Source: Takakia lepidozioides
Taxonomy: Eukaryota > Plantae > Bryophyta
Assembly (NCBI GenBank): GCA_030704615.1
Contig: CM060732.1
Coordinates: 45,818,001-45,882,000 of the forward strand
Reading direction: 5' to 3'
Length of the DNA: 64,000 bases
Positions 5,475 through 64,000 of the stretch are shown here, piece after piece (positions within the stretch are counted from its first letter, which is position 1; each line of letters begins with the position of its first letter). A program made the translations under genes and the position numbers. The notes beneath the pieces were generated by a model. The model worked only from the letters and a program-made list of their open reading frames with translations. It was not told where the DNA came from and searched no databases.

Positions 5475-6759
5475 GCTCCTTCAGCTATCCTGCCTTGGCA
5501 CCAATCCTTGATGCTAGCAGCTGCCAATGGTAGCCTAAAAGTTTTTATAGCAACCACCCCAAAATACTTATTACACACCAGTTTCTATGCTGAATTGCTC
5601 CCAAGACTTGAAAATGACAAAGGATGACAATGTCCAAGAAAGCAATGCAATACACCTTGTTGTCTGCTTCTCTTTGTAATTTAACAGGCATTCACCTTTT
5701 TTCCTTGATTGTCCCACCATTGACTGGGTTCTGAAAAATATTCCTTCCAAAGTTCCTCCTCATCTCTGTTTTCTGTTTTGGGACAATTGCCTGTGCCACA
5801 TTGGCAGTAACATCTCAAAATCATCCAAACCACCATGGATCTACCCGACAAGCTAAGTTGCAGAATTCAACATGAACAAATAGGGGCGACTCTGGCCTAT
5901 GTGTTGAAGAAGAAGGTGCCCTCACCACGTTGTCCTTGACCTTGTGTCATGAATGTAGCTAGCTTTTCTTTCACCCAAGGAGGATTCAACCAAAGCACCT
6001 CTTGTGTGCGCTGCTTGTGTCTGTAGTCGGGGGATCTGCGGTTGGTCTGTGAGAACCACCACGGTGCAGCTGAGCAGCCATAGATTCAAACACAGCCTCC
6101 TAAGACAAGCTGACCCACCCAAGTACCTTGAAAATACCAGGAAAAAGAACAAATCATGATACTGATAGGAAGAGCCCACTTTTGCAGAACAGACAAACTT
6201 CCTCACATCGTACGTTAAGAAAGCCACACCTTGCAATTGCGGTTGTCCCGACATTGTGATGCAGCTCCACAGCCCAGCCCCTTAATCCGCTGCATGACGC
6301 GAGGCCTCTCGCATGACCGAAACAGGAAAACAGGGCCTTGGGTATGGAGTCTGTATGCGCGGTCAGGAGAACGCCGGAAGACACTGCCATCCCCTCCTGT
6401 GAGCGAGAAAGAGGCAGAAGATATTTTGGTCCCTGTACTCCCAAGACCGGAACAAGGAACGAGAGCAATAGCAGGCTCCTCTACACATGGAAAACAATCG
6501 TCCAGCTTCAAGGATCACGCATAGCTGTGAACCATCATTTGCTACTGCATTTCTTACGTCTCTTTCCTTCTGTCTTTTCCAAGCAGATATCATCTCTCGT
6601 CCCCAAATGCCACCTAAAAGCAAAGCTTCGCAGCCTTCCTAGTTTCTGTGATTCTGCTGGTGGGATTATCTCATGACTATCCTATTTCAGCTTTAACCCC
6701 TCTGAAGTCAATATGACACAACCCCGCACCCACTCTCGTTGGAATTTGGGTGAAATGAG

Positions 6760-8599: not shown

Positions 8600-10912
8600 C
8601 TACTTGAGACGAAAGTTTGCCACATGCTCTGCGAGCTCCACATTGCCATGTATTCTGCAGGCACCAAGCAAGGCACCCCACACTGAAGCATCTGGTTTGA
8701 TGGGCATTTTGTTGATGAAGTCTTCTGCCTCACTCAACTGCCCTGCACGGCCAAGCAGGTCCACCATGCACCCAAAATGCTCCATTGCAGGGGTGAGGGC
8801 ATAATCATGGCTCATGATATCAAAGTAGTGATGGCCTTCATTCACTAGACCCACATGACTACATGCAGAAAGAAGAGATATAAAGGTGCAACCATCCGGA
8901 TTCAGGCCTTCCAGTTGCATTTGTTCAAACAGTAGGATAGCCTCCCTACCACAGCCATGTTGACCATATCCTGCAATTATGGCGTTCCATGAGACCACAT
9001 TTCGTTTGGCCATATTGTCGAACACTTGTAGTGCATCCTTTACACTCCCACATTTGGCATACATGTCCACAAGGGTATTCTCCAGAACAATGTCTGGTAT
9101 GATCCTAGAATTGATAATGTCAGCATGGACTTCTTGACCCTTTTCCAGGGCTCCCAGGGTGGCATACACATTAAGAACACAAATAAATGTGACCTTGTCA
9201 GGCATCACCTCTTCCTCTCTCATTTGCTCATAAATGTTCAGAGCCTGCCAACTAGAACCATCCTGAGCATATCCTGTGATCATGGCATTCCATGAGACCA
9301 CATCTCGTTTAGCCATATTGTCAAACACTTGCTGCGCATCCCTTATGCTCCCACATTTTGCATACATGTCAACAAGTGTATTCCCAAGAATAATATCTGG
9401 CACAATTCCAGCTTTAATAATGTCAGCATGCACCTGCTTGCCCCTTACAAGAGCTCCAACGTTGGCACATGCATTCAGAATGCAAACGAATGTGACCATG
9501 TTGGGTATCACCCCTTCCCTTTGCATTTGCTCATAGGTCTCAAAAGCCTCCTGACTATAACCATGATGAGCATATCCTGTGATCATGGCATTCCATGAGA
9601 CCACATCTTGTTCAGCCATCTTGCCAAAAACTTGTTGCGCATCCTTCATGCTCCCACATTTGGCATACATGTCAGCAAGGGCAGTCTCCAAATTAATATT
9701 TGACACAATTCCAGCATTGATAATGTCAGAATGAACCCTCTTGCCCTTGTCCACGGCTCTGACACTGCCACATGCATTGAGGATGCAAATGTAGGTGACC
9801 CGATCTGGCATCATACCTTCCTGTTGCATTTTCTCGTATAACTTAAAAGCCTCACTACCACACCCATGCTGAGCATATCCTGCAATCATGCTGTTCCATG
9901 AGACCACATCTCGTTGAGCCATATTGTCAAACACTTGGCGTGCATCCTTCGTACTCCCACATTTTCCATACATGTCGACAACAGTATTCTCCAGAATTAT
10001 ATGTGGTGCAATTCCAGCTTGCCTGATGTCAGCATGGACTTTTTGGCCCTTTTCCAGAGCTCCGAGGCTGGCACATGCATTGAGAACACAAATGAATGTG
10101 ACTATACTTGGTGTCACCCCATCTTGTTGCATTTGTTCATAGAGCTTGAGAGCCTCCCTACCACACCCATGCTGAGTATAACCTGTGATCATGGTATTCC
10201 ATGAGACCACATTTCGATGAGCCATATTGTCAAATACTTGACGTGCATCCTTTAAACTCCCACATTTGGCATACATGTCAGCAAGGGCAGTCTCCAGATT
10301 GATATCTGGCGCAATTCCACCTTTGACAATGTCAGCATGAACCTCTTTGCCCTTCTCCAGGGCTCCTAAGCTGGCACACGCATTCAGAATGCAAATGAAT
10401 GTAACCTTGTTGGGTATCACCCCTTGCAATTGCATTTGTCTAAAGATCTCAAAAGCCTCCCTACCACACCCATGTTTGGCATATCCTGCTATCATTATAT
10501 TCCACGTAAAAGAATTTCGTTCGAGCATTTTTTCAAACACTTGTCGTGCATCCACCAAACTCCCACACTTGGCATACATGTTGACAAGAGTATTGAGTAA
10601 AAAGATGTTTGGCTTGAATCTATTTTGGATTATGAGGCTATGCACTTGCTTTCCTTTTGCTAGGTCTTTCGAATTTATGCACTCCTGCAACACAGAAACA
10701 TAAGTATTGCAGTCTGCCCGAATGCCTAGGAGGTCCACAATGTGCAGTGCCTCTTTCAGCCGTTCTGCCTTGCATTTTGTCGTCACATCCCCACCAGTGA
10801 CAGAAGAGGTCTTGTTGACTTCCTCCCTTGGTCCTCTTTCAAAGGTAGTAGATATGGTACAGGTGCTACCCCTGCCGCCACTCTGACGTCCAACAAACAA
10901 CTGTGTCTGCAA
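8600..10912 (-). CDS. PLS-class PPR protein, C-terminally truncated by a premature stop near the end of E1; true start uncertain
   Basis: 770-codon open frame with six PLS triplets (MY[A/G]KCGS...), L2/S2 and E1 (WGALLGACRIHGNVELAE), then TAG. The ORF track starts at TTG, so an upstream exon is possible. Confidence 0.85.
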   Translation of the reverse strand: MQTQLFVGRQSGGRGSTCTISTTFERGPREEVNKTSSVTGGDVTTKCKAERLKEALHIVDLLGIRADCNTYVSVLQECINSKDLAKGKQVHSLIIQNRFKPNIFLLNTLVNMYAKCGSLVDARQVFEKMLERNSFTWNIMIAGYAKHGCGREAFEIFRQMQLQGVIPNKVTFICILNACASLGALEKGKEVHADIVKGGIAPDINLETALADMYAKCGSLKDARQVFDNMAHRNVVSWNTMITGYTQHGCGREALKLYEQMQQDGVTPSIVTFICVLNACASLGALEKGQKVHADIRQAGIAPHIILENTVVDMYGKCGSTKDARQVFDNMAQRDVVSWNSMIAGYAQHGCGSEAFKLYEKMQQEGMMPDRVTYICILNACGSVRAVDKGKRVHSDIINAGIVSNINLETALADMYAKCGSMKDAQQVFGKMAEQDVVSWNAMITGYAHHGYSQEAFETYEQMQREGVIPNMVTFVCILNACANVGALVRGKQVHADIIKAGIVPDIILGNTLVDMYAKCGSIRDAQQVFDNMAKRDVVSWNAMITGYAQDGSSWQALNIYEQMREEEVMPDKVTFICVLNVYATLGALEKGQEVHADIINSRIIPDIVLENTLVDMYAKCGSVKDALQVFDNMAKRNVVSWNAIIAGYGQHGCGREAILLFEQMQLEGLNPDGCTFISLLSACSHVGLVNEGHHYFDIMSHDYALTPAMEHFGCMVDLLGRAGQLSEAEDFINKMPIKPDASVWGALLGACRIHGNVELAEHVANFRLK

Positions 10913-12821
10913 TCCTACTATCCTGCAGCACTCAAAACCCTTAGTTAGAGCCCTTAGTTAGAGCCTTTACCCGCTAACTTACAGTTTGAGTCTGCAAATT
11001 CACAGGACATATCTCAAATTTCCTAAATAATTCAGAGGAAGATCACGAGGACATGAGGACATGCTCCTCGCTATATGTTAGCAGGTTACAAAACTACCAC
11101 ACTCATTATCTTCTGTGGATAAACTGTAGCAAAGTCTCTGTTTGATTTGGAACCCCCAAATCAAAACAAACATAATACCCGCTGTATTGTCGGACTGGAG
11201 CTTCATGCTGTACAATGGGATTGAAACCGTCCCCAGATTGTCCTCGACCTTGTATCATAGCAGCCAAATCTGCTTTCACCCAAGGAGGGATCCACCAACC
11301 CTCCAGCCAAAGGACCTCCTTTGTGCGATTATGTCTCAAGTGTGGGGATCTTGGACTTACCTACAAAAATTACCAGTGGGCACATCTCAACCACAACAGC
11401 TACAACAATAAACCTCCAAGCATCTTTCAAATCATAGGAAACCATCGTGGACAACGTTTTCATGCCCTAATAACTGGCGAGAACTCATTTTGCCTCGAGG
11501 ACACCAGATTTCATTAATTTAAGCAACTACTGATGAAATCCACTCGATCATGGTAGCTTCAAGAACTTCTTTAAAACTTCTGCACGTTCTAAATGAAGAT
11601 AGTCTCACCTCTCAAACCTTTTGTCGCCTCACCCTGAAGAAACTCCTGCCAGAGCTCTTCTATGCTCATTGCTTGACCTCCATGGAAGAACTGCAGGAAC
11701 ATCACAATTGCCAGCTTCTGAAGTCACTGTTGAGGAGTGCTGGTGCTCGACAATCGATCCGCAGAGGCTTGTAATGCAAGTGTCGTCCTGACAAATGCTT
11801 CTACAGGAAAGTAGCCTCCCCCTTTCTCCCCTCCCCCTCTCTCCCCTCCCCCTTTATAGATGTGTGTCTGTGCCCCTTGAGAAACTCAAGTACCAATCAC
11901 AGCCACATAGGCCACATCTAGGTTGGATTGGGAGCTGGAGCTGTAGTGCTGGAATAAATATAACGGATACCAGCCCTACCAGCCCTACCATCAAATCCTC
12001 ATATCCCTGAAACCAAATTGGCATTGGCTGTGTCCCGCGAGCTCTAGAGCATCACCGGCAGAGTCAACACACCGTAGAGGGTACAAACCCACAACGGGAT
12101 CCCGAAGGACTGACATCCCGCAGGCATCATGCCCTGGAATGGGTAGATCTCCCTGTCCATTCTGTACCCTCAGTCTGAATCGCAACCGTGGCTCTGCACT
12201 GCTCAGACCACGGAAATGTTCGTTACATCTCGGGTAATAAGTAGCTCTCTCCATTAAGCGGTACCCCAAAACATAAGCTGATCTCTTCACACTCGCTGCA
12301 AGATTTTCGTGGGCCATCCGCAACACTCTCATTCAGAATCTGCCCCTCCCAGCCCCTTCACGCTTCTACAGTGCAGACCGAGGACGATTTGGAACCACGG
12401 GTCCCACGGGTCTGTACACTTGCACCTCGCCACGTGTTCACAATATCTGAATTTTGGTCCACTCTTTTTCCACTTAAAAGACGCCACGTGGCGAGAGCAT
12501 TGGCATGAAAAGGTTTGAAAAGGTTTGACGAGGGTTAGGTGAGGTTTGACCGCGGTTAGTCGTCCCCTGAGTGTTTGCTTTGTGTGCGTGCGTGTGCAGA
12601 GCGCACTGTGAGTAGCTCATCAACGGAATCGCTTTGACTGCCTCCAATCCTCTTGTTTCTTCCGCGTCTACCACCACAAGAACGGAATGAATTGCGGTGG
12701 GATGAGTTTGGTGGAGTCTGGTTTGAGAAGGAGAGGGCCAGAAGCGTGTCGGGTAGCTCGTTGGTTGGGAATGATTCTACTGTGTTGCATGTTTTCTAAG
12801 ACTTGCGCTTAAGAAGGTCTG

Positions 12822-48572: not shown

Positions 48573-49718
48573 TCACATGGGGATGGGTGTTGGTTTCAGA
48601 GTGATAGGAGCATCAGCATGTGAGCCAGAAACTAGAGCAGCCTCTACAATTGCCAAGTCTCTGAGTGCTTCCCTTGGCGAGCTTCTCAGATCAGCCTTTC
48701 CAATACTTCCTCCAGAAACTGCCTGTTGAACATCTGCTATGAACGCTTTCATCTCTGCTTCCAAGCCTGTAAAGGGGTGGAATTGTACACAGGGCTTACC
48801 TTCCAGGGGCCGAAGTGCTACACTGTAGCCAAGTCTGCCATCTTGGACTCCTCTCTCCACTTCAACAGTTCCTTCGGAGCACACAACACGCCAGCTCATT
48901 TTACTTGTCGAAGCGGCAAAAGAAATCACCATGGTGCCTGAACACCCATTCTCGAAGCTCATCAAGGTAGTCAAGGTGTCCGGCGCTGGGACATTGCTGT
49001 CTCTGTGAGTAGCAATTGCAGCCACGGATGTAATTTCACGACCTGTCATCACCCGCAGGGCCGCCACAAAATGAACACCGCAGTCCAAGATGAATCCACC
49101 CTTCAGTGCAGGATCACGTCGCCACTCGCAATGAAAATATTTGTTGGAAGTATTCATGGGGATTTCAATGGCCACCGTTGCCACCACCATTGTGCCCAGA
49201 TCTTGAACCAACTTATGCGCCTCATGAAAGGCAGGCTCAAACCGAAAATTCTCTGCAACAGCCCAGATGGGCGCCTCAATCTGGAGAGATGAGTAAGCTT
49301 CAAGTGCCTGAATTCCCTCCACCACCGATCCAGCAACAGGCTTCTCTTGCAGGACATGCTTTCCAGCTCGAATTGCCCTCAGAACAATGGCAGGCTGAGA
49401 GAGAATCGGGCACACCACAGCACAGCATTGCACCAAAGGGGATGCCAGAATTCGCTCCAGCCCCTCTTCACCCCACACTGCCTCTGCATTTACCGCAAAA
49501 TCTCTCACTCGCATGAACAATTGCAGGGCTGAATGCTCAGATCTACTCCACACGAAACGGAGAGAGATGATGTCATGGTATAACTTGAAGATGGGCACGT
49601 ACGCATCCCGTGCGAACACGCCACAGCCCAGCAACGCCAAGCCTGCCATCTTTCCTTCCTCTCTCGTCTCTCCCGCTCCCTCGCTTTCTTCTCCAGGAAC
49701 CAAGTGGTGGGTGGACAT
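48573..49718 (-). CDS. Gfo/Idh/MocA-family NAD(P)-dependent oxidoreductase, intronless (start may be 49649)
   Basis: LALLGCGVFA Rossmann motif, AGKHVLQEKPVA, WAVAENFRFEP and GGFILDCGVHFVA. Confidence 0.93.
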   Translation of the reverse strand: MSTHHLVPGEESEGAGETREEGKMAGLALLGCGVFARDAYVPIFKLYHDIISLRFVWSRSEHSALQLFMRVRDFAVNAEAVWGEEGLERILASPLVQCCAVVCPILSQPAIVLRAIRAGKHVLQEKPVAGSVVEGIQALEAYSSLQIEAPIWAVAENFRFEPAFHEAHKLVQDLGTMVVATVAIEIPMNTSNKYFHCEWRRDPALKGGFILDCGVHFVAALRVMTGREITSVAAIATHRDSNVPAPDTLTTLMSFENGCSGTMVISFAASTSKMSWRVVCSEGTVEVERGVQDGRLGYSVALRPLEGKPCVQFHPFTGLEAEMKAFIADVQQAVSGGSIGKADLRSSPREALRDLAIVEAALVSGSHADAPITLKPTPIPM

Positions 49719-49943: not shown

Positions 49944-50801
49944 TCAAACTATTCTAGTATCACCTACAGCCTGAAGAAGGTCAGACAACAGGAAAGAGGG
50001 TGGATCAGAGAGTGCGGGGAGGCGAGATGAAGCCGCCCCAGCAACCTCTGCCCAAAGTAAAATAGATTGAGCTTGAGCCTTTTGCAAAGCAACAGAAACT
50101 CGTTGTCTAAAGAAAGCTACAGGAACAGAGGCGTATGGGCTTCCAAGGCTTTTGTTTTCTGCTGCACGATGGGCGCATGTGCGAAGGAACTCGTTGAACT
50201 GATGATGCAAACAACCAAAGATCTCGATTGCCAAAGGAAGAAATGTGTATGTGGAATGACGTGCCCGATAGTCATGCTCATTTCCCTGCGCAGCTACTGA
50301 AGCGGCAACTCCCTATGATGAGGCTGTGCGGGGCAGGAGATCCGACCTAGTAAGATCAGCGATAACAATGTCCGCCAATGTACGTAGTCCGTCCTGTGAG
50401 AGAACAATGTCAACCCGTCGTCGAGTGGAATGGTGATTGTGGGTCGATGGGAGTATGTGCACTTGCTCTCGAATGACATGTATCCCAGCATCACGAGCAA
50501 CCGCAGCTGCTGCATCCCGAACGACGTCATGGGTCGCAGTGCTTTCTCCCCCGCAAGGGCAATGAAGGAGATGTACGCCGAGTGAATCAAGAGGATGGCG
50601 ACAAACACACTGATGTAGTCCTAACACAGAGGGATGCGGAAGACCAAGTCGAATTCGTAGGGAGGTGGTAAATTTAAATGAAGACATACGGAAGGGTGCA
50701 ATGGTTGGTCGTACCGTGAGCCACGCGCCTGCTCTGGGCCCTGCGCACGAGAGAAGACTGGCCCGATGTGCATCTGAAGGAGCGTCGGAAAGCATGCTGG
50801 C
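49944..50801 (-). mobile_element. 3' end of an RLE-type non-LTR retrotransposon (CRE-like), frameshifted and 5'-truncated
   Basis: AGAWL..P; LRIRLGLP; CVC...HLLHC..G....HDVVRD (CCHC knuckle); RRVDIV...LADIVIAD (restriction-like endonuclease); FPLAIEIFG; QRVSVALQKAQA. Confidence 0.8.
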
Positions 50802-52595
50802 TGTCAAGTTATTTTGCCACTAGTGTGAAACTAGCTAAATAGCTAGCTTTTACATATTGACATTTGGGATTGGCCCAAGTGTCAATCCACGGGTCAAGGC
50901 AAATTTAGGCCCTGGAGTGGTTATCTTCACGGCAAGCGCGGGAGGCTCATCTTTCTCGAGTTGAGCCTCACCGCGCCTAGCTATGGCGCCGTAGTGTGGA
51001 TTCCCCATGGCGTGGGGTGCACTTGGCTTGACTTGTATTTGAGTGATGAGGTTATATATGCATGAGTTTATGCTTCAGCTTTGTGAGCTCGTATGAGCTT
51101 GTGCTTGTATTCTTCTTCTTTATCACTCGAGAAAGATGAGCTCGTATCTATGAGTGCCAGATACGAGTTAGTTGTAGCACTTGTGGTTTTTGCTTGAGAA
51201 TGAGAGAAGGTTGTTATGCAAGGAGCACCGTGGAGCTCTTGGTTGTTAGAAGCGGAGGCGATGTGGGTTACGAGGTGGGTTTCAATCTCGAGCTTCAGCA
51301 TTGAGAGGGCTCTTGTCATGGCAAGAGCACGGCTGGAACAGGAGCTAAGAGGTGCGGCAAGGCCATGGAATGTGCACCTAGGTTTCAGAGCTTGGAAGAA
51401 GAACTCTTGCACCACAAGAGGAGTGTCTTGTGGCTGGAAATTTAAGCCTTAGGGTTTCAGGAGCTTGGCAAGGGCTGTGGAGTGCTTAGTCTTGTCTTAG
51501 AGAGCATCAAGGAGCTAAGGAGCCAAGATAGGGGGCTGATACCTCTTGTGTGAAGAGGTTGCATGTGTGGAGCATGTATTCATCTCATTGAAGCTTCCAT
51601 CTTCAAGCTTGGAGGGTAAGCAAGAAAGGAAGGAAGGGGCTGGTTTCCCTGTAGGGCATGTGTGGAGCATGCTTCCAGCCCGCTGAAGCTTTTCAGGTTG
51701 GTGGTTGCAAGAAAGAATGCAAAAGGGCTGATTCTCTGGTGGTGAGAGTGGGGCATGTGTGGAGCATGCCTTCAGTCCATTGGGCTTTTGTTTTCAAGCT
51801 TTAGAGAACTAGAAGAGAAGGTAAGGGGCTAATCTGCTCTTATGTGACAGTCCGACACTTGTAGAACGTGTTCTGAGTTGGGGTTTCAACTTCAAGCCTA
51901 GATAGAGCATGGCTCTTGAAGTGGCAGGTGTAGGGGGCTGGAATAGGCTCTAAAACAGATGCTATGGCCAAGGGAAACACTTGAATGAGTGCTCACAAGG
52001 GCTGGAAACCAGCAAGGCTTGGTTGTTTGCCATTGAGCTTAGTGGCGTGTTTGGGGAGTCTAAGTGAGAAAGAAGGCTTGGTTTGTGGCAACCATCTTCC
52101 TCATGGCTTAGGGCTACTATTGGTGGTGTGTGGGAGCCGAAAGAGCAAAAATACCTTGCTGATTTCTTCACAGCCGCCCAAGCTCGGTGCAAAGAAGCTA
52201 GAGTCCAGACTGGTGGGCTGTGCCTGTGCGGCGGCCGGCCAACTGTGGCTGTGACACTGTGGCTGTGCAGGCAGGCTTGCCCCCCCTGTGGGGCTGAGGG
52301 CTGTGACAGGCTGTGACTATGGGGTTGTGACGGGTTGTGATGGACTGTGACAGGCTGTGGCCTTTGGGGCTGTGACCCTGTGATCTTTCACTACAACAGA
52401 TGAGCGTTTTTATGACTTCACATATGACTATTTTTTCAGTCTTATATGCGTTCATGACTACATCACTCTGTAGTGAAAAAAACCCTGTCATAGCGATTAG
52501 TCTTTAAGACTGCGTTTTGCAAGTCATATCCATGACTGCTTGCGTGGCACCTGGAGTCCTGCTGCAGAGAGGGTTGCAGTCACAACTATATGACT

Positions 52596-53010
52596 AATAT
52601 ATGACTACATTGTCTGTTGAGCGCTGCCTACATGGAGAGGCTTCAGCGGGACACGTGCGCCACTGCGCAAGCGACACGTCATGCATTCGTCAGGGGATCA
52701 TATGACTATATGTCTGCAAAGTGATGCCTACATGGAGAGGCGACGGATGGACACGTGCGCCACTGCGAATTTGACATGTCACGACTTCTTGCCATGATCA
52801 TATGACTACATGTCTACACAGTGATGCCTACATGGAGAGGCGCTAGCAAGACACGTGTGCTATGGCAGATTTCACATGTGGTGACTACATGACTCGCTCA
52901 TATGACTACAGGGATGTCTACATGGAGAGATATTAGCGGGACACATGTTGCACTTGAGATGTGACATGTGGCACACAGACAAAATATATGACTAGCATAT
53001 ATGACTACGG
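52596..53010. repeat. CACTA subterminal ~100-bp tandem repeats (4 units)
   Basis: ctacatggagag at ~52628, 52728, 52828 and 52918, each unit with atatgacta and gacac.tg. Confidence 0.9.
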
Positions 53011-54520
53011 ATCTTTACACGTGGTGAAAATGGATAAAGAATGTCGTGTCATATACTGCCACGTAATTCTGGTTTGAGCAAGAGTGATGCCACGTGTCAT
53101 CAAGATTGTTTTCCGAAATAGTTTATATTTTTAATGTTCATATTTTAATTTTTAGTTTTCATTTAATATTTAAAAGAACAGGGAGATTGTGCCTTGGATT
53201 TTTTTTAATGGTATATTTTTAATATATTATTTTAAAATGAAAGTGAATTAAATGATTTAAAATCTTCATTACATGGTGAAATTCCAACATGAAAACAGAA
53301 TGGATCCCTCCTGCATATGGGTCCATGAGAAGTATCCCTCCAAGTTTTACTGATATTTTGGGTGCATAAGTAACCCAAGTATCTCTATAAGTAGCCATTG
53401 TAGCTTAGTACCAGGACGTTGGTTTCATGGGGCAAGGAATTTGAACACACCTGAAGTCTACATTGGCCTGACATCATGCCTTTGGCACTTTCAACTTGTC
53501 TAGTGGAAATCATTTGTGATTGTGCCTTGGCTGACCCTGCATTGTCCAACTTCCCTGTCTTGACAGACATACCCTATCTCTTCGTGATTTTACCAAAAAC
53601 ATACATAATTAGAATCATGGTCAGTGTGAAGAACTATAACTCACAGACGGAGAAGGTGTTCCGTGTAGATGATGGGCGTTTTGTCCTGCGACATGAGCAT
53701 GGGCATGTTCTCCTCGGCTTGCCGTGGCATCCGCCGACAACGCACTCGCCTCGCACTGGCGTGGGAGGAGTGGATCGTCCTCATCGTCCTCAGAAGAGCC
53801 CTCATGCAGAATCGTAGTCTTCATCGTCTTCAGTCTGGCACTTTGTCTTGCAGGACCTTGATCCCTACCTTTTTCCTTCGGAGCGCGTGGCTTGCGAGGG
53901 CGATTCGCTCCCGCAAGCCTGCACAAACACCTCCATGACCTCCCTCTCAAACAATCACAAAAAATATAAGCATACATACCCTAATACTCTTAAGCCTACG
54001 CTGAACCACAGCCGCACCCTACCAGGACGTAATGCCTGCCCACGAATGACGGCGGACATCTCCCGCCTAATGACACACCGTCCTCAAACCTAATCGTCAC
54101 TCACTGCATGTTGTTTGCCCTCTGTTTGTACAAGTCGCAGCTACTCGCCCCCATTTGTGCTATGAAGCTTATGATCGCTGTAGGAAGGTTAGAGGATAGG
54201 CAAATCGCAAGTTTAGTGGGTGGGTATCCAAAGTCAGGAACTAAACTCACCCATCTATCGACTGCTTGAACGTTTGCTTCCACCTCCTTTATGGCAGCAA
54301 TCCGGCGCTCTCGGAACTTCTCGTACTCAGTGAGAGGGACGGTCACTTCGAAGACCTTCCGCTTCACCATGGACACTCAGAAACGATACTTATAGTATAC
54401 TATAGATATAAAAAATAGCACATTGGCAGCTGGTGCAAAACTAGAGACAATGCACTGTGCGTAGCATGCAAAGAGGGAAGGGGGTGACGTTCAAAGCATG
54501 TACAGTGCAGGTGGCGCGGG

Positions 54521-55996
54521 ATGCGTAGGCGTAGAATAGATGACCGTCTATGGCGAATGGAAGAAGCTTATGCCACAAGGAATGGGCATACAAAAATGTT
54601 ATGCAACTGCAATGAGTGTCATGGAGGAAAAGTACTCTTGTTGGAAACAGTGAGGAATCATTACATGATACATGGGGGGATCCTCTTCTCCAACGCTGTT
54701 CTCTTCCGGTAAGATCGCCACTTTCCCTTCAGCACTTTAGTTTGAATTTTGAATACAACGATCCTCTTCTCCACATGTCGACATTTCGTTGGGTGATTGT
54801 AGTCAAGAAGTCATAAGAGATACAGACGTGAGTATGACTACGTCACTTCCGTTATCACTTTAATTAATGCACATGTCGTGTTTTCATTGGTCATGTGTAG
54901 TCATGTAGTCATATATGACTAGTAAGTGACTGCAACTATGACTTCAATGGTTACAAATGTCGTGTGTTTTGATTGGGGTTATATTCATAAGATACATACG
55001 TAAATATGACTGCATCACTGCACGTCACCGTGCCTCCTATGTCATAATATGAACAAGTGTCACATCATTGTTGGTCCACTCACAAGATGACTATTGGGAT
55101 GCAGGGATGTGAATATTCAGATGATGAAGACGAAGGCCCTGCGGCACAGCGGGAGCCCAATGTCACAGAGAACGCAGTGGTGGATGGAGGTAGAAATGCA
55201 GCGTGCATTGCAGGAAGCGCGTTTCTCTTTGCAAATGCAAACAGAGAGGTCCCCATTCATGGTGGAACCAATCACACATTTGCCAATCATGACGATGATC
55301 TCGACGATTCGGGAAACAATGAATTTGATGAGAATGCTCACCTGCACGTTGATCCCGAGTATGATAAAACTCTTCCGAGCGTCGCAATGTCCACTTTTTG
55401 AAGGGTGCTCCATCAGCCGGCTGCAAGCAACTTTGACGTTGCTGAACGCATGCACGACCACAAGTGCACCAATGCATTTGTGGATGAGCTTCTGGGATTG
55501 TTGCGTAAGAGTTTTGAGTAGGGGCGAGTCGCGTGGGTCGTCAACCTATGTCAATGAAGCAGGATGATGCTGGCTTCACACTTGTCAAATTTTAACCCGT
55601 ACGCTGCCACCTTCTGAGCAACCTTTTGTGTTTCCCTGGCCAGGTTGATCAAGTGTTTTTTTCTGATTGTGTGAGGAGCCAGGTGGGAAAGTCGTCCTGG
55701 AGAAGAGCCCCCGAGCACGTAGAGTGGTCTGCGACATCTCAATTGATATGATGATGTGGGGAAGTGGAAGGATCTGTTAGCCCCACAAAGACTAGAGAGA
55801 GACTGTGGTTACTAATGGCCCAACATGCAGCCGAGCGGATACCGACGTTACTCCAGAGCAGGTGGCCTCCTTGTACCTCCGAGCAACCCGTATACGTGGT
55901 GATGATGTTCAGCCAACCCTTGGAGAAGATGAAGTCTGTGATGAAGACAGTGATACATGTAGTGAGCCAGACATAGATGAGGATGATGAAGATTAG
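54521..55996 (+). pseudogene. Internally deleted CACTA TnpD transposase
   Basis: N-terminal LCNCNECHGG...VRNHYMIHG (transposase-associated domain) and PLFEGCSISRLQATLTLLN...NAFVDELLGLL join almost directly (~55515-55550) to the DUF4216-like KQDDAGFTLV..F...EQPFVFP.QVDQVFF...KVVLEKSPR and an acidic tail. The catalytic core is missing. Confidence 0.8.
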
Positions 55997-56355
55997 ATAT
56001 GCGCGATTTGTGCACTCCAGTTATAGACCATGCATGATAGTTTAAGGTGGTAACACTCCCTTCGCATTCCCATTAAGATATCATGCTTGGACACTGGATT
56101 TTATGATCAATTATGGAGTGTTTTCCTTTCAGCAACCTTTATTCATTTGTTGTTGCAATTGGCTTTGGACCAACCGTGCTCGTTACCATTGCCATGGGTT
56201 TTGCCTGCAATGTTTTCCATGGATGCACACGGATGTCGGCACACGCCACGAAAGGCCATCCAGACCATCCTCTGGAAATGCTCCAATGTTGTTTCAAACA
56301 TCTCCACATTGCAATGGATACAACACTGACATTAGATGAGTGAAAGTGAGACTAG

Positions 56356-57247
56356 ACCTCCAGCCAGCCGGCTTTCCCACATCAAATTGAAGGGGATCTG
56401 TAGATTATAGATAACGGCTGTTGCCTTCTCAATGTCTTTTCCATGACCTCTGCAATGAACTGGGGTATAAGATCCTTCAAATCACAAGTTTGAGCATCAC
56501 GCACAAGCCACTTACGGGGATAGAGTTTCCAATGCGAACCATTGGTCTTTTATTAGAGTTTCCAATGCGAACATTGTCTTTATTGATTAGCATGGTTGTG
56601 AAATACATGGACCACAATGTCAAGTTCGGGAATGACATATAGTACGCTTAATGTATATGTAAGCAGGGTCAAACTATGTACCAGTGATGTGGCTTGTTCG
56701 CCACTTAACCTGTTTGCCCATTCAGCCAGACTCCACATTGTCATGGATTTTGCATGCTGGATTGTGAGGCCATCCACACCGTCTCTGGAAATGCTATCAT
56801 GGGGTTTCAGCTATGTCCACATTTCCTGGATTATGCCTGCACGAAGCAAGGCCAACTGCATTCAGCACCCTCCACTTATTATAGTATTGCAGCAACATTC
56901 AAAGCACTTCAATTTGTATCCATCGAAAACATCTAGGCTGGAAAAGACATTGTTGCAGCAGAACTTAGGAAAGTACTTCTCCCTTCCACTACACATATGA
57001 AAGAAAGAAGCCAACCAACAGCATACCAGCCAAGAAAATATGAAACCAGCCAAGAAAAGAGCCAATATATGCAGTGAAGGTCGACCTAAATGAAACTTAT
57101 CCAACACTTACATTAGAGGAGGGAAGCTAAGTCATACCTCCATAAGCTTGCCCACATCAAATTTGGGAGCTTTCAGAATTTCTCCTTTTCTGGTTGAATG
57201 AACTTGGCTACAAGATCCTTCAAATCGCAAGTTGAGCTTCACACACA
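56356..57247 (-). pseudogene. RPS3A: Two captured fragments of 40S ribosomal protein S3a/eS1 (56356-56504 and 57137-57247)
   Basis: Copy 1: VRDAQTCDLKDLIPQFIAEV / GKDIEKATAVIYNLQ. Copy 2: TCDLKDLVAKFI / KILKAPKFDVGKLME|gtatga. Both match the eS1 C-terminal consensus. Confidence 0.85.
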
Positions 57248-57371
57248 ATGAACTTGCAGGATTGAGTTCCAATGCGAACCAGGAGTCTTATAATTGATAG
57301 CTTGTTGTAAAACACATGGACCAACAATGACAGTCTCTGGATGACATATAGTACAGTAATGACATATAGTA

Positions 57372-58062
57372 CAGCATCCGCTTCCAGTTGACCATCTAAC
57401 CATGTAGGTTTCTTGTACCATCCTTCCACAAGGAATCATAGGTAATGTGGAGCTTGAAATCCAGCCCCTTTGGATGAATAGACCCCACACTCTATCCCTG
57501 CTCCTTCAGCTATCCATGCCTCTAATAGCCTACAATTCTACCAGCAAACACCCCAACCATACTGGTGTGGAGTTCTTCCCCAAAACACCAACCCTACTTA
57601 TCACAATCTGAAATGCATATGCTTCTCTCTGTAGGTCCAACAGGCATTCGCCTTTTTGTCTCCATTGTCCCACATTGGGGTCGGAAAGTGTTTACCCAAA
57701 GCTTCTCCTCACCTCTATTATATGTTTGGATACTTCCCTGCTGCCACACTGGCGTAACTTGCCAAAGTCACTCCAAACCACCACAGATGTACCCAACGAC
57801 CTAACTTACAGAATTCAATATGCTTTGCGGCGAGTCTGATGAGAGGGCAACACAGGCTGAAATAGTTGAAGAAAAGGTGCCCTACCACATTGTCCTTGAC
57901 CTGTCCTGACCCATGGAGGATTTGACCGATGACCTCTTGTGTGTGTTTGCTTGTGTCTATAGTCAGGTAATGTTGGATTGGTCTGTCAGATCGAACCACT
58001 ACGGCGTAGATGAGTAGTCAGAGATTGAAACACGCTGCTAAGACCAAGCTGACTCTCCCAAG
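57372..58062 (-). repeat. Diverged copy of the 5' coding and upstream region of the PPR-DYW gene (~5345-6125) inside the CACTA element
   Basis: Colinear matches gcttccagttgaccatcta, tgctccttcagctatcc, aacaggcattc.ccttttt, cagaattcaa, aaggtgccct and caagctgac. Peptide KPTWLDGQLEADAV matches PPR KPACVDGQLEAAAV. Confidence 0.88.
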
Positions 58063-59645
58063 AACGGCGAGCTCGCTTGTCCTCGTCTCGTCTCCTCCTC
58101 CTCTTCTCCTTCGTGCATCATTTGCTCAACGCCTCCATCCCACGCCCCGCATATCCTGCTATCATCGCGTTCCATCCCTCAGCTATGTGGTGTGGCGCAG
58201 GAGACAAAAAGACGCCAAGTCCCAGCCCTCCTTTCTGTTCACGATTACACTAATGGGCAACCTTATTAGCAAATTTTTTAACTTTTTTAAACCTAATGGG
58301 CAACCTTATTTGCATTATATGTGCCTTCAAAATGACACGTATAGTGATGTAGTCGTATAAATAGAGCTCTGAAACCATCTTCAGTCATGGAGTCATAAGA
58401 TTCCATGAAACGTCGTCCACGTGTAGTCAAACATATCACACTAGTCATATAAACCATCCTTGTCATCATGGTCAACAATGTTTGACCAATGCTCCCTAAC
58501 TTTCCGGAGTCATGTAGTGATATCCATTACTACAAAGTCATAAAACTAAAACTGTAATGCATTTCAGCGCTCTGTAGTCATGTACCTAGTGCAGTTTTTA
58601 TGACTCCGCCAAACCCGTAGTCCTAAAAACGCTCATCTCTTGTAGTGTTTGTAGGGCTGTGACAGGCTGTGCCTGTGGCCTTTGGGGTTGTAATGGGCTA
58701 TGATAGGCTGTGACATGTGGCCTTTGGGGCTGTGACAGGCTGCGGCCTATGGGGCTGTGACCCTGTGACCTGTGTAGGGCTGTGACAGGCTGTGGCATGT
58801 GTGGGGCTGTGACGGCTGTGACCAGTGAGCTGTGTGGGCCTGTGCTGGTCTGTGGTGGCCCGTGTTGACCTGTGGACGGCCTATGCTGACTCGTGGAGGC
58901 ACTGGTGGACTGCCTAAGGACTGGCATGTGGTCTTCAAGGCCGAATTTTGAAGCTCGTGGAGGGCGGTTTGAGGAGTATCTTCATGATATTCCCATGGTC
59001 ATGCAAGTGAGGGAAGAGAGGAGAGGAAGAGTATTGGGATGAGGGCATGCTGGGGTTAGGCATTGCTTTAGCTTCTCTTCCTCGTAGTTTCCACCCTGTC
59101 ATTAGGCCAAGACATTTTCGTAGGTGGAGGCAAGAGTCAGTCCGGGTTTGGGCCGGGGTGTCCTTGCAGGAGCAACACCGTGGAGTTGTTTTTGGTGTGG
59201 GGGAGTTGTCGTTATGATTTCTTGTGTTTGGATCACCTCCATACCTGCATGCTTGACTGTGCGCCATGCTAGTTTTGTGTGGGCGCTTGTTTTTATAGGT
59301 GATTGGTCCGGATTTGATCATTGGCCAGTCCTAGAGCATGCTGTCGATGGTGAGGCTGGGGTGATGACCAGCCTGACCATCATTGTTTCTCCTGTGGTGA
59401 GGTTGGAGGTGATGACCAGCCAACCATAGGAGTGCTTGCGGTGGATGCAGGTACAGGTGTAGGCTATATTAGGAACTTAGTATTCCAAACCATAAGCCGC
59501 AACAGGTTCTCTACCCGGTTACCTTGTGGAGAGGGGGTTAGGGATATGTTCATGACCGGTTGAGTGTCAACACGGAGGTGCCATTAGTTGCTGGGACAGT
59601 GCCGGTTCGAGCACTAGCGATACTAGTGGGTACACGAGACGAGGT

Positions 59646-61040
59646 GTGCGGTTTAGGCCACCTTCACCTCCTGTGTCTTCTACGGAAGGTTATGATTCAG
59701 ATTGTGAATCAGGAGGACTCATACCGGCGGTGCAAGTTGTTTCCTTGCCATTGTTGTGGGACACAATGGAGGAGATGTATGGAGCTACCAAGGGGCCACG
59801 AAGATACTCTGGGGCGGTGGGCACCAGCGAGTTGGATGATTGTATCCAAGAGTTTGATAGTTGGTGTGATTTGCAGCAAATGCGCAATCCACAACTATTT
59901 ACGCCTTTCATGGCATTGAAGGGGCTGTTTCAGCACCTTGAGGGGCCGCCTATGGATGATTACCATGAGTTCAGGCGGGGGCATGAGGTTGAGATCGAGG
60001 AGTGGAGGATGTACTGGTCACCCGACTATGTCTCCATCACTAGGGGCACTAGAGCCACGAGGGCAGTGGCTACACCTGCCGCTGTACCGACAGCTTCAGC
60101 AAGCAGCAGTGGGACTAGTAGGACTGGTGGTACCGTAGCTACGACGTCCACCCAAGCCACTACCGCACCAGCACTAGTACCCGTACCTGCCTTCAACCCT
60201 GTTGTGGAGTTCTTCGAAGAGTTGAGAGGGAACTACCAAGGGGTGAGGACAGAGAAGTTGCGGAGTTTGCAAGAGTTCCAACGGAAGCCGACCAAGAGCT
60301 TGAGGGAGGCTTTTACTCGCATGAGGCGCTTGATAAATGTAACCCAAGGGGTTACAGAAGCTCAGGCAGTCCAATTCTGGTATGGGATATTGGGCAAGGA
60401 GTTGAGGAGAAGGGTGCGGGATGCAACTCTCCTATAAGCGGCCCAACCCACCTTAGCAAATGTGTTTTTGCTGGCAGAGCGGATAGAGCTCAACATGGTG
60501 GAGGAACGAGTGGTCATGGTGGGATTTGCTAAGGAGACACCACGGGGTAGTGGTGCTCCTAGCCAACCACTACCTCAACGTGCTCAAGGCAACAAGGGGG
60601 CTCAGGTGAAGCTCAGGGAAGGGCAGAGAGGACCTCAGATGCAGGGGTCTCTCCCTTCATTTGCTGGCCAACAACGGGCGGATGTGGTTTGCTGGACTTG
60701 TGGAGGACCCCATGTCAAGAAGGATTGCCCAGAGGGAGGCAAAGGGCTGGCACATGCACAGCCTGCACAGTTGTAGTGTGGGCATTGTGGCAAGTACGGG
60801 CATGGAGAAGCCCAGTGCTATAGTTTACATCCTGAGTTGCGCCCAGGCCAATTCCAAGGGAACAATGGTGGCCGGGGGCAAGGTGGAGCAGCCCAAAGAG
60901 GACGAGGTGGCCAGGCACGGGGTGTAGGCCAAGGGCAAGCTCAACATAGCCATGGACGCGGAGGTCAAGGTGTTGACCAAGGCATGACCAACCGGCTTCA
61001 ACAGCTAGAGCAGAGGCTCGCTGCCATGGCTACAGCTCAG
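59646..61040 (+). pseudogene. Retrotransposon Gag with two zinc knuckles (in-frame stops at 60435 and 60774)
   Basis: One frame throughout. Capsid-like FFEELRGNY...LQEFQRKPTKSLREAFTRMRRL; knuckles CWTCGGPHVKKDC and CGHCGKYGHGEAQC; G/R/Q-rich tail. Confidence 0.85.
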
Positions 61041-61679
61041 GTGGTACGGCTCCAAGGCCGGATGGTCCACCTCCTGCTCCTGAGGGAGGAGATATGGGAG
61101 GCATGGGATTCATGTGCGGAGCAGCACTACCACTAGTGTAGGTGGAGTCTGCTGCAGCCGTGACTCGAGGAACAGCACGAGTTCCTGAGCCACAAGGTGC
61201 AAAAGTGGAGTTGGATCCACAGCGTGGGGAGGCAGGCCATCAGGCTAGGCTCCCTCAGTCATTCACATTGGTAGAGATAGCGTCGACGCCATCCATGGCA
61301 CCTAGTTCTCGCCCAACTCTTACCGAAGCGGAGGTTACTATGCCATTGGGGAGAGCTACACGGGTAGCACCACTACCTAGTGTTGTCAAGGCTACGACAG
61401 CTAGTGTGCTGCTGGGAGTGGCCACATCTGTGTGTCAGGCTCCATTGTTCTCGGCTACCATGATTGCGACGTCGGGGGTAAGACCAACTGAGGTGTTCAG
61501 GCTGGCAGCTACACTCTGTGAGAGTGGGGAGGTTACTTCATCTTCTGCGGAGATAGTGGGAGGTGTAGTGCCGGAGGGATCCTCGGATTTGAGGGTCAAG
61601 ACTGCCACGGCGACGCCATGGCAAGCTGCAGCTGCCAGGTTGATGGAGCTGCCAGCTAGGCCAACCATTGAGCGCGCCA

Positions 61680-62140
61680 TGGTGACACCTGGAGTTGTCA
61701 TGTTAGACAACCGGGATGACATTTTCTGTTTGAGTGGACCGGCAGGCAAGAGGTACCGGCCACTGTGGGTCTTGTTGGACTCGGGAGCTCAGCCATTGAT
61801 GTTGGGCAGAGTTGCTATTGCAGGCTTGGTCCTCACGGAGGCGGATATGGAGCCTTGTCATTTCCAGATACAGATGTCTCTGGGAGGATCGGAGCAGGCT
61901 CGGGGCATGACACGGCGTGAGTTGGCTATCAGACTACGGCCGGATCACCCTATAGATGGCTCAGTGATGCGAGCCAAGGCCATTGTGACAGACGCGGTCT
62001 CGTACGATGTCCTGGTTGGTGGGGCAGTGTTGTACCCCATGGGCTTCACCCTGGATTTTTGGGAGGAGTCAGCTTCCTATAGGCCTGGATGGCAGTCAGG
62101 GGAGGGCTGGCATATGCAGCTCCCTGTGACGTTCATAGAA
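61680..62140 (+). pseudogene. Retropepsin-type aspartic protease domain
   Basis: VLLDSGAQ (catalytic DSG at 61778) and the C-terminal YDVLVGGAVLYPMGFTLDF motif. Confidence 0.85.
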
Positions 62141-62488
62141 TGAGTTGCGGTTGCCCAGCGAGGCAAGATGCCGACACTAGCAGCATTCACAGCGGCAGTG
62201 AGTTGGCCTAGAGAGTTGCTTGAGGGCAACGCTCATTCAGAGGAGGTGCCACCTCCGGGAGAGCAGGATGACATGTATGGTATGGCGGAGTTGCCTACCA
62301 TGGTTGCTCAAACTCCATTGTGGGGCACGAGCAAGGATTTGCAGCGGGATGCTGATCGACGGGTGCAACAAGCCTGGGTGGAGGCTTTTGTACCGTCAGG
62401 AGAGGAGGAGAGTGCGGGGATTGCACCAGGACCACCTCAGTTGTCTCCATTGGACACCATACCTATTGTGTGGCAGTATCCGGATGAA

Positions 62489-63440
62489 GGCATTTGTCTT
62501 CTGGACTTGTTTGGCGGGATCAGCACCGGATTGGTTGCTGTGTTACAAACAGGTGTACGAGTTCGGCGTTACCTGTATGTGGAGAGGGATGAGACTGCAC
62601 GACACGTCTCACTCCGTCATATTGCTCAGTTGGTGCAGCAGTACCCTAAGTTGTTGCCGGTATCTGCGGTTCGTGGATATCAGCAGGCCTTGCCAACAGA
62701 CATCTCTTTGTTGGGGGCGTAGGATTTGGAGCGGGTTGGCTTCATTGATTTGGTAGTGGCAGGTTGGCCTTGCCAAGGGTATTCATCAGCCGGGCATGGC
62801 AATGGATTGCGAGACTCGAGGTCGGGTCTGTTTTGGGATATGGTGCGGGTTTTGCGCCACTTACAGCTTCATCAGGCTGTATCTCCAGCATACATCTTGG
62901 AGAATGTGCCACTGATGGGCGATTCTCGGGCCAGGGTGATGGCCAGTGTGCATCAAGTCCGGTCGTGGCTTGGGTCAGCAGTGTTGCAGGATGCAGCTGC
63001 AGTGGGGTCACGGGCTCATCGTCCACGGTTATGGTGGACTAACTTGATGCCACCCCCACTGCTTAAGCGTGCATTTGATGGGGTGCAGCGGCCAGCACAC
63101 CTCACAGTGGATAGCATTTTGGACACAGTGAGGCAGTCTCAGCGTGTGAGACACGATGACCATTTGCCTTTGGCAGTGGTCAACAAGGTGGGTCAACCAC
63201 GAGCAGCACTCCCTACACTGCTCAGCTTCCCATGATCGCATGTTTTCCGGGATGGACCTGGCCTCCTGTGGGATGCTCAGTTGCAGCAATTAGTGGAGCC
63301 TAATGCCGACGAGCGAGAGTGGGCTATGAGTTTTTCCACTGGGACCACGGCGGTGCCTTCTCTTTCTGAGGCATCACGTCGTCAGGTGTTGGGGCAAGCA
63401 ATGGATCTAATTGCTTGACCTGGATTATCAGCTTGGCTAT
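62489..63440 (+). pseudogene. C5-cytosine DNA methyltransferase domain (DNMT3-like) within the retroelement polyprotein
   Basis: Motifs I LLDLFGG, II YVERD, III DI, IV AGWPCQGYS (catalytic Cys 62771), V RSGLF, VI ILENV, VII DAA, VIII AHRPRLWWTN, IX EPNADERE..M and X LGQAMD. Same frame as the protease. Stops at 62720 and 63233; 1-bp deletion near 63410. Confidence 0.93.
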
Positions 63441-63490
63441 GGCTGAGCAACGAAGAGTGCGGAGTGCACTTCCCTTGACGGTCTCTCTGC

Positions 63491-64000
63491 CAGGGATGCC
63501 TCGGCGTGAGCCTGGTCACGTGAGCGCGTGAGCGCGACTGCGCTCACGCCACGTCACCTTGCGCAAATGCCACGTCACGGGGCTCAGTCCACGTCATCAC
63601 ACGTGGAGGCCGAGTCACCACGCACCCAGAAAGAAGTGGAGTGTATTCCCGCGGATTGGCACCCTTTACCGCGGAAACAAGCTGGACGACATAATAAAAG
63701 GCATTGAATAAATGATGGATGAATGTACAGTTGGATGATAAACAGATGGATGAGTTTGAAAAATCTATGTAGATGGATGAATGACGGATGGATAAGAGTA
63801 AAATGGATGAATGTATAATGGATGTTGAGCAATGACAAAAATTCATGACAGGAAGATGCATGACCAAATCTTTTGACGAATGCACAAAGTATATGAAATG
63901 AGTGTGGAAGGTTTGTGGGGTGGATTAAAGAGTACAGAGGATGAATGTACAATGGATGTTGTACAAAGGAAGCTTTCATGAATGGAGCACGCATGAATAC
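63491..64000. mobile_element. Probable start of a further inserted element (hAT-like terminus) with GTGAGC/CACGTC motifs and a (GGAT/GAAT)-rich tract
   Basis: Coding character ends at CAGGGATG (63491), which resembles the Ac/Ds-type TIR start. Clustered short motifs follow, then low-complexity tggatgaatg repeats from ~63700. The other end is outside the window. Confidence 0.4.

Follow-up and report, generated by a model that had tools for sequence, protein, structure and literature searches.

Can a retrotransposon of a land plant carry a DNA methyltransferase of its own, and at what point of its cycle would such an enzyme act? The question is raised by a 64,000 nt stretch of the Takakia lepidozioides genome (GCA_030704615.1, contig CM060732.1, positions 45,818,001 to 45,882,000; the whole stretch is termed the window). 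A preliminary description had recognised there a polyprotein of Gag with two CCHC knuckles, a DSG protease and a C5-cytosine methyltransferase (MTase) with motifs I–X in order and the catalytic PC and ENV retained, and this reading is confirmed. Very probably the element is a decayed, dead Ty3/Gypsy retrotransposon copy, of bryophyte type, that belongs to the Gypsy-Dnmt3 lineage known from the alga Klebsormidium. Taken with its relatives, it is best read, with some reserve, as an element whose first frame holds Gag, protease and a DNMT3-like MTase, whose reverse transcriptase (RT), RNase H, integrase and PHD finger likely follow by readthrough, and whose MTase likely methylates the element's own new DNA in the particle.

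The coding region occupies 59766–63491 on the + strand and was read with X placed at in-frame stops. The six stops (60435, 60774, 61139, 62141, 62720 and 63233) and two frame changes (near 61040–61046 and at 63408) match the earlier count exactly; both frameshift sites vary among sequencing records of the host's runs. Zinc knuckle 1 is of the form C-x2-C-x3-H-x4-C (60687–60734) and knuckle 2 of the form C-x2-C-x4-H-x4-C (60777–60818). Pfam supports the MTase (PF00145, 49 bits, cut-off 22), whereas Retrotrans_gag (E 0.002) and the first knuckle fall under the Pfam cut-off and the protease has no Pfam match in the window protein at E 1; the protease is assigned from its DSG motif and from relatives, which match Asp_protease_2 or gag-asp_proteas. 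The MTase motifs stand in canonical order: DLFGG (62504), PCQ (62768–62776), ENV (62900), SRAHRPRLWWTN, an altered motif IX and LGQAMD. Residues 1–415 and 437–1219 of the Marchantia gene model Mp_4g09160 (P0004, 1278 aa) align with the window at 53–62% identity (53% for Gag, 57% for protease–MTase); thus, the fusion is real and the window copy decayed. An open frame upstream of the ATG at 59766 (GYTR-G-RF) is common to locus L015.

Protein homology stops at 63491, and 29 host records depart from the window sequence at the same position. In comparison with 75 relatives, no RT, RNase H or integrase was found within the window. It counts against the wider reading that the 3′ half is missing from the window, and that the stop, B repeat and target duplication described below are seen only in relatives. 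The missing RT is also the single observation in favour of a host DNMT3 retrocopy, of a nested insertion in one Gypsy copy, or of an algal or contaminant contig. Against these explanations, the same fusion occurs across liverworts, peat moss and algae, and the MTase is not stand-alone in the window or in relatives. The protease–MTase order is common to relatives in Marchantia, Calypogeia, Sphagnum, Closterium and Klebsormidium, so the link is no one-off retrocopy. The window carries a pair of PLS-class PPR genes, of which one has a DYW domain, further plant genes, and an oxidoreductase gene (48576–49649) whose closest proteins are from mosses (65% identity to Physcomitrium, 61% to Marchantia paleacea, at most 51% to algae). 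In a tree of 31 rows for this one gene it is sister to seven moss-type rows (support 98/96) within a moss–liverwort clade (98/92), which agrees with the land-plant host first proposed and makes an early-branching moss likely. In addition, 41,790 records of one host run align to the 6.5 kb at 57500–64000, most of them 90–99% alike; this figure is not a copy number. The element belongs to a large multi-copy family in the host, and a retrocopy or contaminant origin is scarcely credible.

Homologues were named from Marchantia, Calypogeia, Sphagnum, Closterium, Klebsormidium, Chromochloris and Enallax. Metagenome loci (L-numbers) are the best 80 of 164 confirmed and reduce to 61 distinct groups; in an RT tree made up of relatives, their main type falls with Sphagnum proteins (peat-moss-type). 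As had been proposed, the MTase sits between protease and RT: 48/80 loci (40/61 distinct) continue from MTase into RT. The full order Gag, protease, MTase, RT, RNase H, integrase and PHD finger is present in 10/80 loci (9 distinct), the remainder being mostly short or cut. The expectation of intact relatives with paired long terminal repeats (LTRs) thus holds for the domain order, whereas in the bryophyte loci a stop ends the first open reading frame (ORF) at the MTase, and the repeats depart from the usual LTR pair. The Ty3/Gypsy order Gag-protease-RT-RNase H-integrase is found in relatives, while the window holds Gag-protease-MTase only. HHCC and D,D35E of the integrase are kept in L008, L018, L020, L059 and L062, and the best match of the profile in the Protein Data Bank (PDB) is Ty3 Gag-Pol. 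The loci were retrieved by MTase patterns, therefore sisters without an MTase could not be counted.

The resemblance of the MTase to DNMT3 enzymes is borne out by sequence and by predicted fold. A PDB sequence search with the window MTase ranks DNMT3A first (E 1e-7), ahead of DRM (2e-5) and M.HhaI (3e-4), and the predicted structure of the MTase of a relative (P0016, mean pLDDT 77.8) has DNMT3A/B/C in all 33 matches listed. A non-rearranged DNMT3-like MTase with catalytic residues is thus found inside a Gypsy polyprotein. Fold and motif order are shared with mammalian DNMT3A/B and with the moss host enzyme PpDNMT3b (PMC6453930; this and the other papers cited were available in part, and statements on them are limited to those parts). 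Unlike mammalian DNMT3A/B, to which identity is about 20%, the element has PCQ rather than PCN and sits in a Gag–protease polyprotein. Phage records match the MTase at 25–27% identity (best E 2e-9) and viral contigs gave one weak MTase match only (L081); no close prokaryotic source is apparent among the phage and viral records searched.

Among the best 150 matches of a profile search over 1.84 billion representatives, 147 were new sequences; the count of 597 clusters at E 1e-30 is inflated because the profile included part of the integrase. No host DNMT3 was identified among these best 150, and their MTases split by architecture into a protease-MTase(-RT) group, which holds bryophytes, Closterium and K. 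nitens KFL_013780020, and an RNase H-MTase-integrase-PHD group. In an unrooted MTase tree of 34 selected rows without host DNMT3, the architecture split has support 99/96 and the window falls in a bryophyte clade (99/99). KFL_013780020 is 36.5% identical in the MTase, has the Gag-protease-MTase order and lies on the same side of the 99/96 split as the window and Closterium (support 97 in a 157-row tree); this gene model is assumed to be a copy of KnitGypsy-Dnmt3 (PMC5890265). The suggested land-plant family stands as a multi-copy family in bryophytes, while the lineage itself is the known Klebsormidium Gypsy-Dnmt3. In the 34-row tree the Marchantia MTase groups with Sphagnum (99/92) and not with the liverwort Calypogeia, which could be horizontal transfer or old parallel lineages.

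The RNase H-MTase-integrase-PHD group is a large sister group in which the DNMT3-like domain comes after RNase H and before the integrase, with a PHD finger behind; it includes P0061, P0062 (Enallax), P0073 (Chromochloris) and most of the 147 new representatives. Its named members (Enallax, Chromochloris) are chlorophytes, and no description of the group was found in the literature searched. In P0061 (residues 2820–2990) and 29/147 representatives, a C-terminal segment behind the PHD finger carries DP(W/F)xGxG and (V/I)TSPW(F/Y). The segment presumably resembles an adenine methyltransferase (DAM), judging by its motifs; it has no Pfam match. Elements combining DNMT3, DAM and PHD, unlike the published EpiLTRs, are thus possible.

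In loci that continue beyond the MTase, an in-frame stop separates it from RT. The stop lies at the same place in L015 and L002, and an aligned stop is present in 40/43 loci (34 distinct; TAG in 28, TAA in 12), with CAR-YY directly 3′ of it in 40/40. First ORFs of Marchantia, Calypogeia and further relatives end 70–99 residues past motif X, where that motif was found. MTase and RT are thus in the same frame but stop-separated, in contrast to the single MTase-RT-RNase H ORF of KnitGypsy-Dnmt3. CAR-YYA 3′ of UAG directs tobacco mosaic virus readthrough and is a plant-virus signal (PMC2754532, PMC2194720); no paper linking CARYYA to retrotransposons was found in the literature searched. The conserved stop and CAR-YY suggest that the MTase is likely made at the level of Gag and that RT follows by readthrough; on this evidence, RT, RNase H, integrase and PHD finger are probably readthrough products. 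Several points weigh against this. The full CAR-YYA is present in only 2/40 stop contexts, most of which read CAA-CCC and then ATG. The aligned stop is missing in 3/43 loci, all divergent, one of which has stops a few codons away. P0228 holds protease, MTase, RT, RNase H and integrase in one frame without a stop, and according to the authors of PMC5890265 a single ORF holds both DNMT and RT. Because an ATG stands two codons 3′ of the stop in the main type, and given the case of Tca2, reinitiation, splicing or an internal promoter may instead be the route to RT.

The terminal repeats of the relatives depart from the ordinary LTR plan. The complete locus L059 reads A (339 bp), coding region, polypurine tract, B (113 bp), A, B, so that its ends are A and B and not two identical LTRs. 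B-A-B 3′ ends are also present in L041, L062 and L063/L064, and in L002 the contig ends with B-A. Repeat A opens with TGTCATG and repeat B closes with CACGACA, giving termini TGTC...GACA. Among the four elements with both ends, a 4 bp target duplication is exact in L059, L018 and L038 and has one mismatch in L025; in L063/L064 and L069, of a divergent subfamily, no duplication is readable and the termini are decayed. B plus A carries the marks of one ordinary LTR, with a purine tract before it, a TG start, a CA end and the primer site after it. The joint of B to A is a palindrome, GACA-NN-TGTC, with a 2 bp centre, and the joint of A to B reads CA-AT-TG, a blunt end-to-end junction in L059, L041 and L062. 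Instead of the tyrosine recombinase without target duplication of DIRS/PAT/Ngaro elements, a DDE integrase and a 4 bp duplication were found. Palindromic circle junctions can be cut by integrases; circles of this sort also serve IS3/IS30 transposases. The A-coding-B-A-B layout, the 4 bp duplications and the DDE integrase together point to integration, likely of a circle, at the palindrome within the LTR. Integration through such an internal site is a reasonably good bet, and a two-LTR circle opened between B and A would be its simplest account.

Eight loci have a single B at the 3′ end (A-coding-B: L003, L006, L018, L020, L025, L028, L048 and L051). These outnumber the B-A-B copies, and the permutation A-B-A-coding-B was absent among the loci examined; both observations tell against the circle. 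The commoner class would fit a circle-free scheme in which the integrase trims linear complementary DNA (cDNA) at internal palindromes, giving A-coding-B, with B-A-B arising from tandem or recombined products. However, A-coding-B copies are without terminal redundancy and therefore could not be copied again, L059 has a single duplication around the entire A...B-A-B unit, and the A-to-B joint is blunt in the three loci named above. The same layout is moreover reported in Klebsormidium (PMC5890265). The circle-free scheme is accordingly rated as quite improbable, and opening of a circle is retained. Inverted internal segments or head-to-head halves in L077–L080, L069 and L022/L038 could be autointegration products.

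The primer-binding site of L059 and L055 is a perfect 17 nt complement of a site inside A. Among 11 peat-moss-type loci the self-priming duplex reaches 17 nt in 2 and 10–12 nt in 5, while the other 4 have one of 8 nt or none; in L064 it is no longer than 10 nt, and the sequence of the 17 nt duplex differs between families. Self-priming has been described for Tf1/Sushi and plant Tcn1 (PMC6317226). The window holds a duplex of the same kind: 50945–50961 and 51125–51141 are perfect 17 nt complements, with 12 nt the longest in 2000 shuffles. Its sequence is unlike the duplexes of the relatives, yet the aligned positions coincide. On the strength of this duplex the 5′ end of the element is placed near 50824. 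The element likely extends far upstream of the interval first given, 59556–63480, to about 50824, and its homology ends at 63491. In alignments with relatives, the window 5′ repeat scored below the maximum reached in 200 shuffles (87 vs a shuffle maximum of 88 for L059, 89 vs 94 for L018, 71 vs 86 for L064).

A cycle consistent with these features can be outlined. The RNA would start inside repeat A and prime itself on the 17 nt site 3′ of A. Most ribosomes would halt after the MTase, which would be packaged at Gag-like numbers and freed by the protease. The linear DNA then synthesised by RT would be of the ordinary kind, its LTR being B plus A, with TG...CA ends, a polypurine tract ahead of B and the primer site behind A, and joining of the linear ends would give a two-LTR circle with the CA-AT-TG joint seen between A and B. 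The DDE integrase would then open the circle at GACA-NN-TGTC between B and A, yielding A-coding-B-A-B with a 4 bp duplication; A-coding-B copies may derive from circles with one LTR or from B-B recombination at a later stage. With the cDNA methylated, a new copy would arrive pre-marked, and the PHD finger would likely read chromatin at the target.

The MTase shows constraint. Between the window and the peat-moss-type MTase, the proportions of nonsynonymous and synonymous differences (pN, pS) are 0.217 and 0.718, and the corresponding rates are dN 0.26 and dS about 2.4, near saturation. Against 9–10 peat-moss-type loci, pN/pS is 0.32 for Gag, 0.41 for the protease and 0.30 for the MTase (9 loci), dS again being near saturation. 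By these ratios the MTase is under purifying selection, as constrained as Gag and more than the protease. In mostly decayed copies, PCQ is found by pattern in 28/42 and ENV/ENM in 39/42, and both are present in 17/17 first-ORF proteins checked. Two measures point the other way: among close peat-moss-type copies dN/dS is highest in the MTase (0.63 vs 0.41 for Gag, 0.58 for the protease and 0.46 for RT), and stops per 100 aa are most frequent in the MTase (1.32 vs 0.86 for RT). Both are read as mostly post-insertion decay, and still weigh against the preferred reading, as does the lack of methylation by the KnitGypsy-Dnmt3 domain when placed alone in yeast, a result its authors call inconclusive (PMC5890265).

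This inactivity in yeast, together with a Gag-like abundance that would fit a structural role, would suit a domain that binds or protects nucleic acid, or an RNA methylase of the particle, without DNA methylation. The catalytic residue counts given above argue against such a module, as do the related SymbioDIRS-Dnmt3 domains, which methylate CG in yeast (PMC5890265), and it is considered unlikely. A second alternative, held to be equally unlikely, is that the PHD finger of the integrase directs the MTase not to cDNA but to the chromatin of the host, at the target or near it, or in trans to other elements. It draws on the PHD finger that closes the polyprotein in both architectures, on the position of the MTase directly before the integrase in the green-algal type, and on moss DNMT3b, which methylates CHH in heterochromatin and CG de novo (PMC6453930). 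In the bryophyte elements, however, a stop and RT-RNase H part the MTase from integrase and PHD finger, and the MTase would therefore not be kept tethered to the PHD finger. Methylation of the element's own cDNA, the preferred role, has perhaps an even chance of being correct.

Among known systems, KnitGypsy-Dnmt3 of Klebsormidium nitens is closest, with Gypsy domains and a non-rearranged DNMT3-like MTase, DIRS-type A-coding-B-A-B repeats, purifying selection and a proposal of cDNA methylation (PMC5890265). It differs in its host, which is here a land plant, and in its one ORF, as against the MTase–RT stop of the bryophyte loci; target duplication, self-priming, a terminal PHD finger and Marchantia go unmentioned in the available text of that paper. 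SymbioDIRS-Dnmt3 and PAT/Ngaro-type DIRS elements share the A-coding-B-A-B repeats, the former with a DNMT3-like domain (PMC5890265). These have a tyrosine recombinase, whereas the bryophyte elements have an HHCC/DD35E integrase, a protease and 4 bp duplications. A circular intermediate is the working model for DIRS elements. Tf1/Sushi and Tcn1 chromoviruses are alike in predicted self-priming and presence in mosses (PMC6317226); unlike these, the bryophyte elements have a PHD finger rather than a chromodomain, an MTase and split repeats. EpiLTRs and DAM-LTRs also pair methyltransferases with a chromatin reader, but their DNMT is sister to DNMT4, their reader is a chromodomain, and the paper sets them apart from streptophyte Gypsy-DNMT3 (bioRxiv 10.64898/2026.05.21.726589).

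According to a 2019 opinion paper (PMC6338049), land plants such as tracheophytes lack DNA methylases encoded by transposons. No report of the land-plant family was found in the available parts of PMC9985172, PMC12885004, PMC9940879, PMC8557442 and PMC6453930. PMC12344493 and bioRxiv 10.64898/2026.05.21.726589 say 'streptophytes', which could cover land-plant members in their trees or supplements. Land-plant members of the Gypsy-Dnmt3 lineage were thus not found in print, in a search of the literature that took in few subscription papers.

The features of the window are collected in Table 1. The leader is interrupted by a 6.3 kb CACTA element with complete ends, foreign to the retroelement, in which 27/29 terminal bases are inverted-identical and a TTT target duplication is present; it has 100 bp subterminal repeats at 52599–52910, and repeats in common with window positions 5353–6126. 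In a self-BLAST, 52297–52386 matches 58653–58821, a GCTGTGAC-rich repeat. Two host contigs omit 423 or 444 bases, one contig each, from 59006–59451 with GT..AG ends, a possible leader intron; its loss as an intron in some DNA copies is possible only. The 3′ part of a non-LTR element (49944–50819, − strand) adjoins the likely 5′ end of the retrotransposon; its CPCG...H and RRVDIV motifs are presumably those of the restriction-like endonuclease of a non-LTR family. The PPR genes are tandem and intronless (2844–5480 and 8600–10957, − strand); E, E+ and DYW domains are present in the first.

Table 1. Features of the retrotransposon copy and of the sequences within and beside it (window positions)
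Feature	Position	Strand	Remarks
5′ terminal repeat A, likely	50824..51125	+	Begins TGTG, ends TCA; position and ends by inspection
Self-primer stretch in repeat A, predicted RNA 5′ end	50945..50961	+	17 nt, complementary to primer-binding site
Predicted primer-binding site	51125..51141	+	Directly 3′ of repeat A
Leader part 1, likely	51142..52388	+	GCTGTGAC-rich repeat on both flanks of the CACTA insertion
CACTA-type DNA transposon inside leader	52389..58647	.	CACTACAA termini, TTT either side
Leader part 2	58648..59555	+	Host-record depth climbs steeply at about 58600–58800, high until about 63575
Gag with two zinc knuckles	59556..61045	+	Stops 60435, 60774; ATG 59766 is first residue of Marchantia P0004
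Conserved Gag-to-protease segment	61046..61681	+	Stop 61139; aligned to P0004 437–605
Aspartic protease	61682..62137	+	DSG at 61778; 56% identity to P0004 606–760
DNMT3-like C5-cytosine MTase	62477..63468	+	Catalytic Cys codon 62771, ENV 62900; stops 62720, 63233; frame change near 63408
Unrelated repeat, interrupts or truncates element	63492..64000	.	Homology end; no match to 81 loci

What is new here is the MTase–RT stop with CAR-YY, the A-coding-B-A-B layout with 4 bp duplications and a DDE integrase, the family-specific 17 nt self-priming duplex and the green-algal RNase H-MTase-integrase sister group. The only described Gypsy case is an alga, whereas the present family is in mosses and liverworts. 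Tentatively, a green-plant-wide Gypsy group may merge retroviral and DIRS-like cycles, with self-priming, circular cDNA, DDE integration at an LTR palindrome, amber readthrough, a capsid-level DNMT3-like enzyme and copies that arrive methylated, and this group would have been recently alive in Marchantia. From the arrangement of the repeats, the DDE integrase would seem to use an internal site on a circle, a departure from accepted LTR-element integration, and the A/B arrangement would hide such elements from standard paired-LTR finders. In Marchantia polymorpha at least five first ORFs, 95–98% identical, are annotated as hypothetical genes; enzymes of elements are thus mixed into the DNMT inventories of bryophytes. 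The Marchantia V sex chromosome carries 4 of the 15 cluster members listed (Mp_Vg00370, Mp_Vg00540, Mp_Vg00480 and Mp_Vg00690). Since Marchantia has genetics and methylomes, the role of a retrotransposon's own MTase, a question of 2018, is directly testable there.

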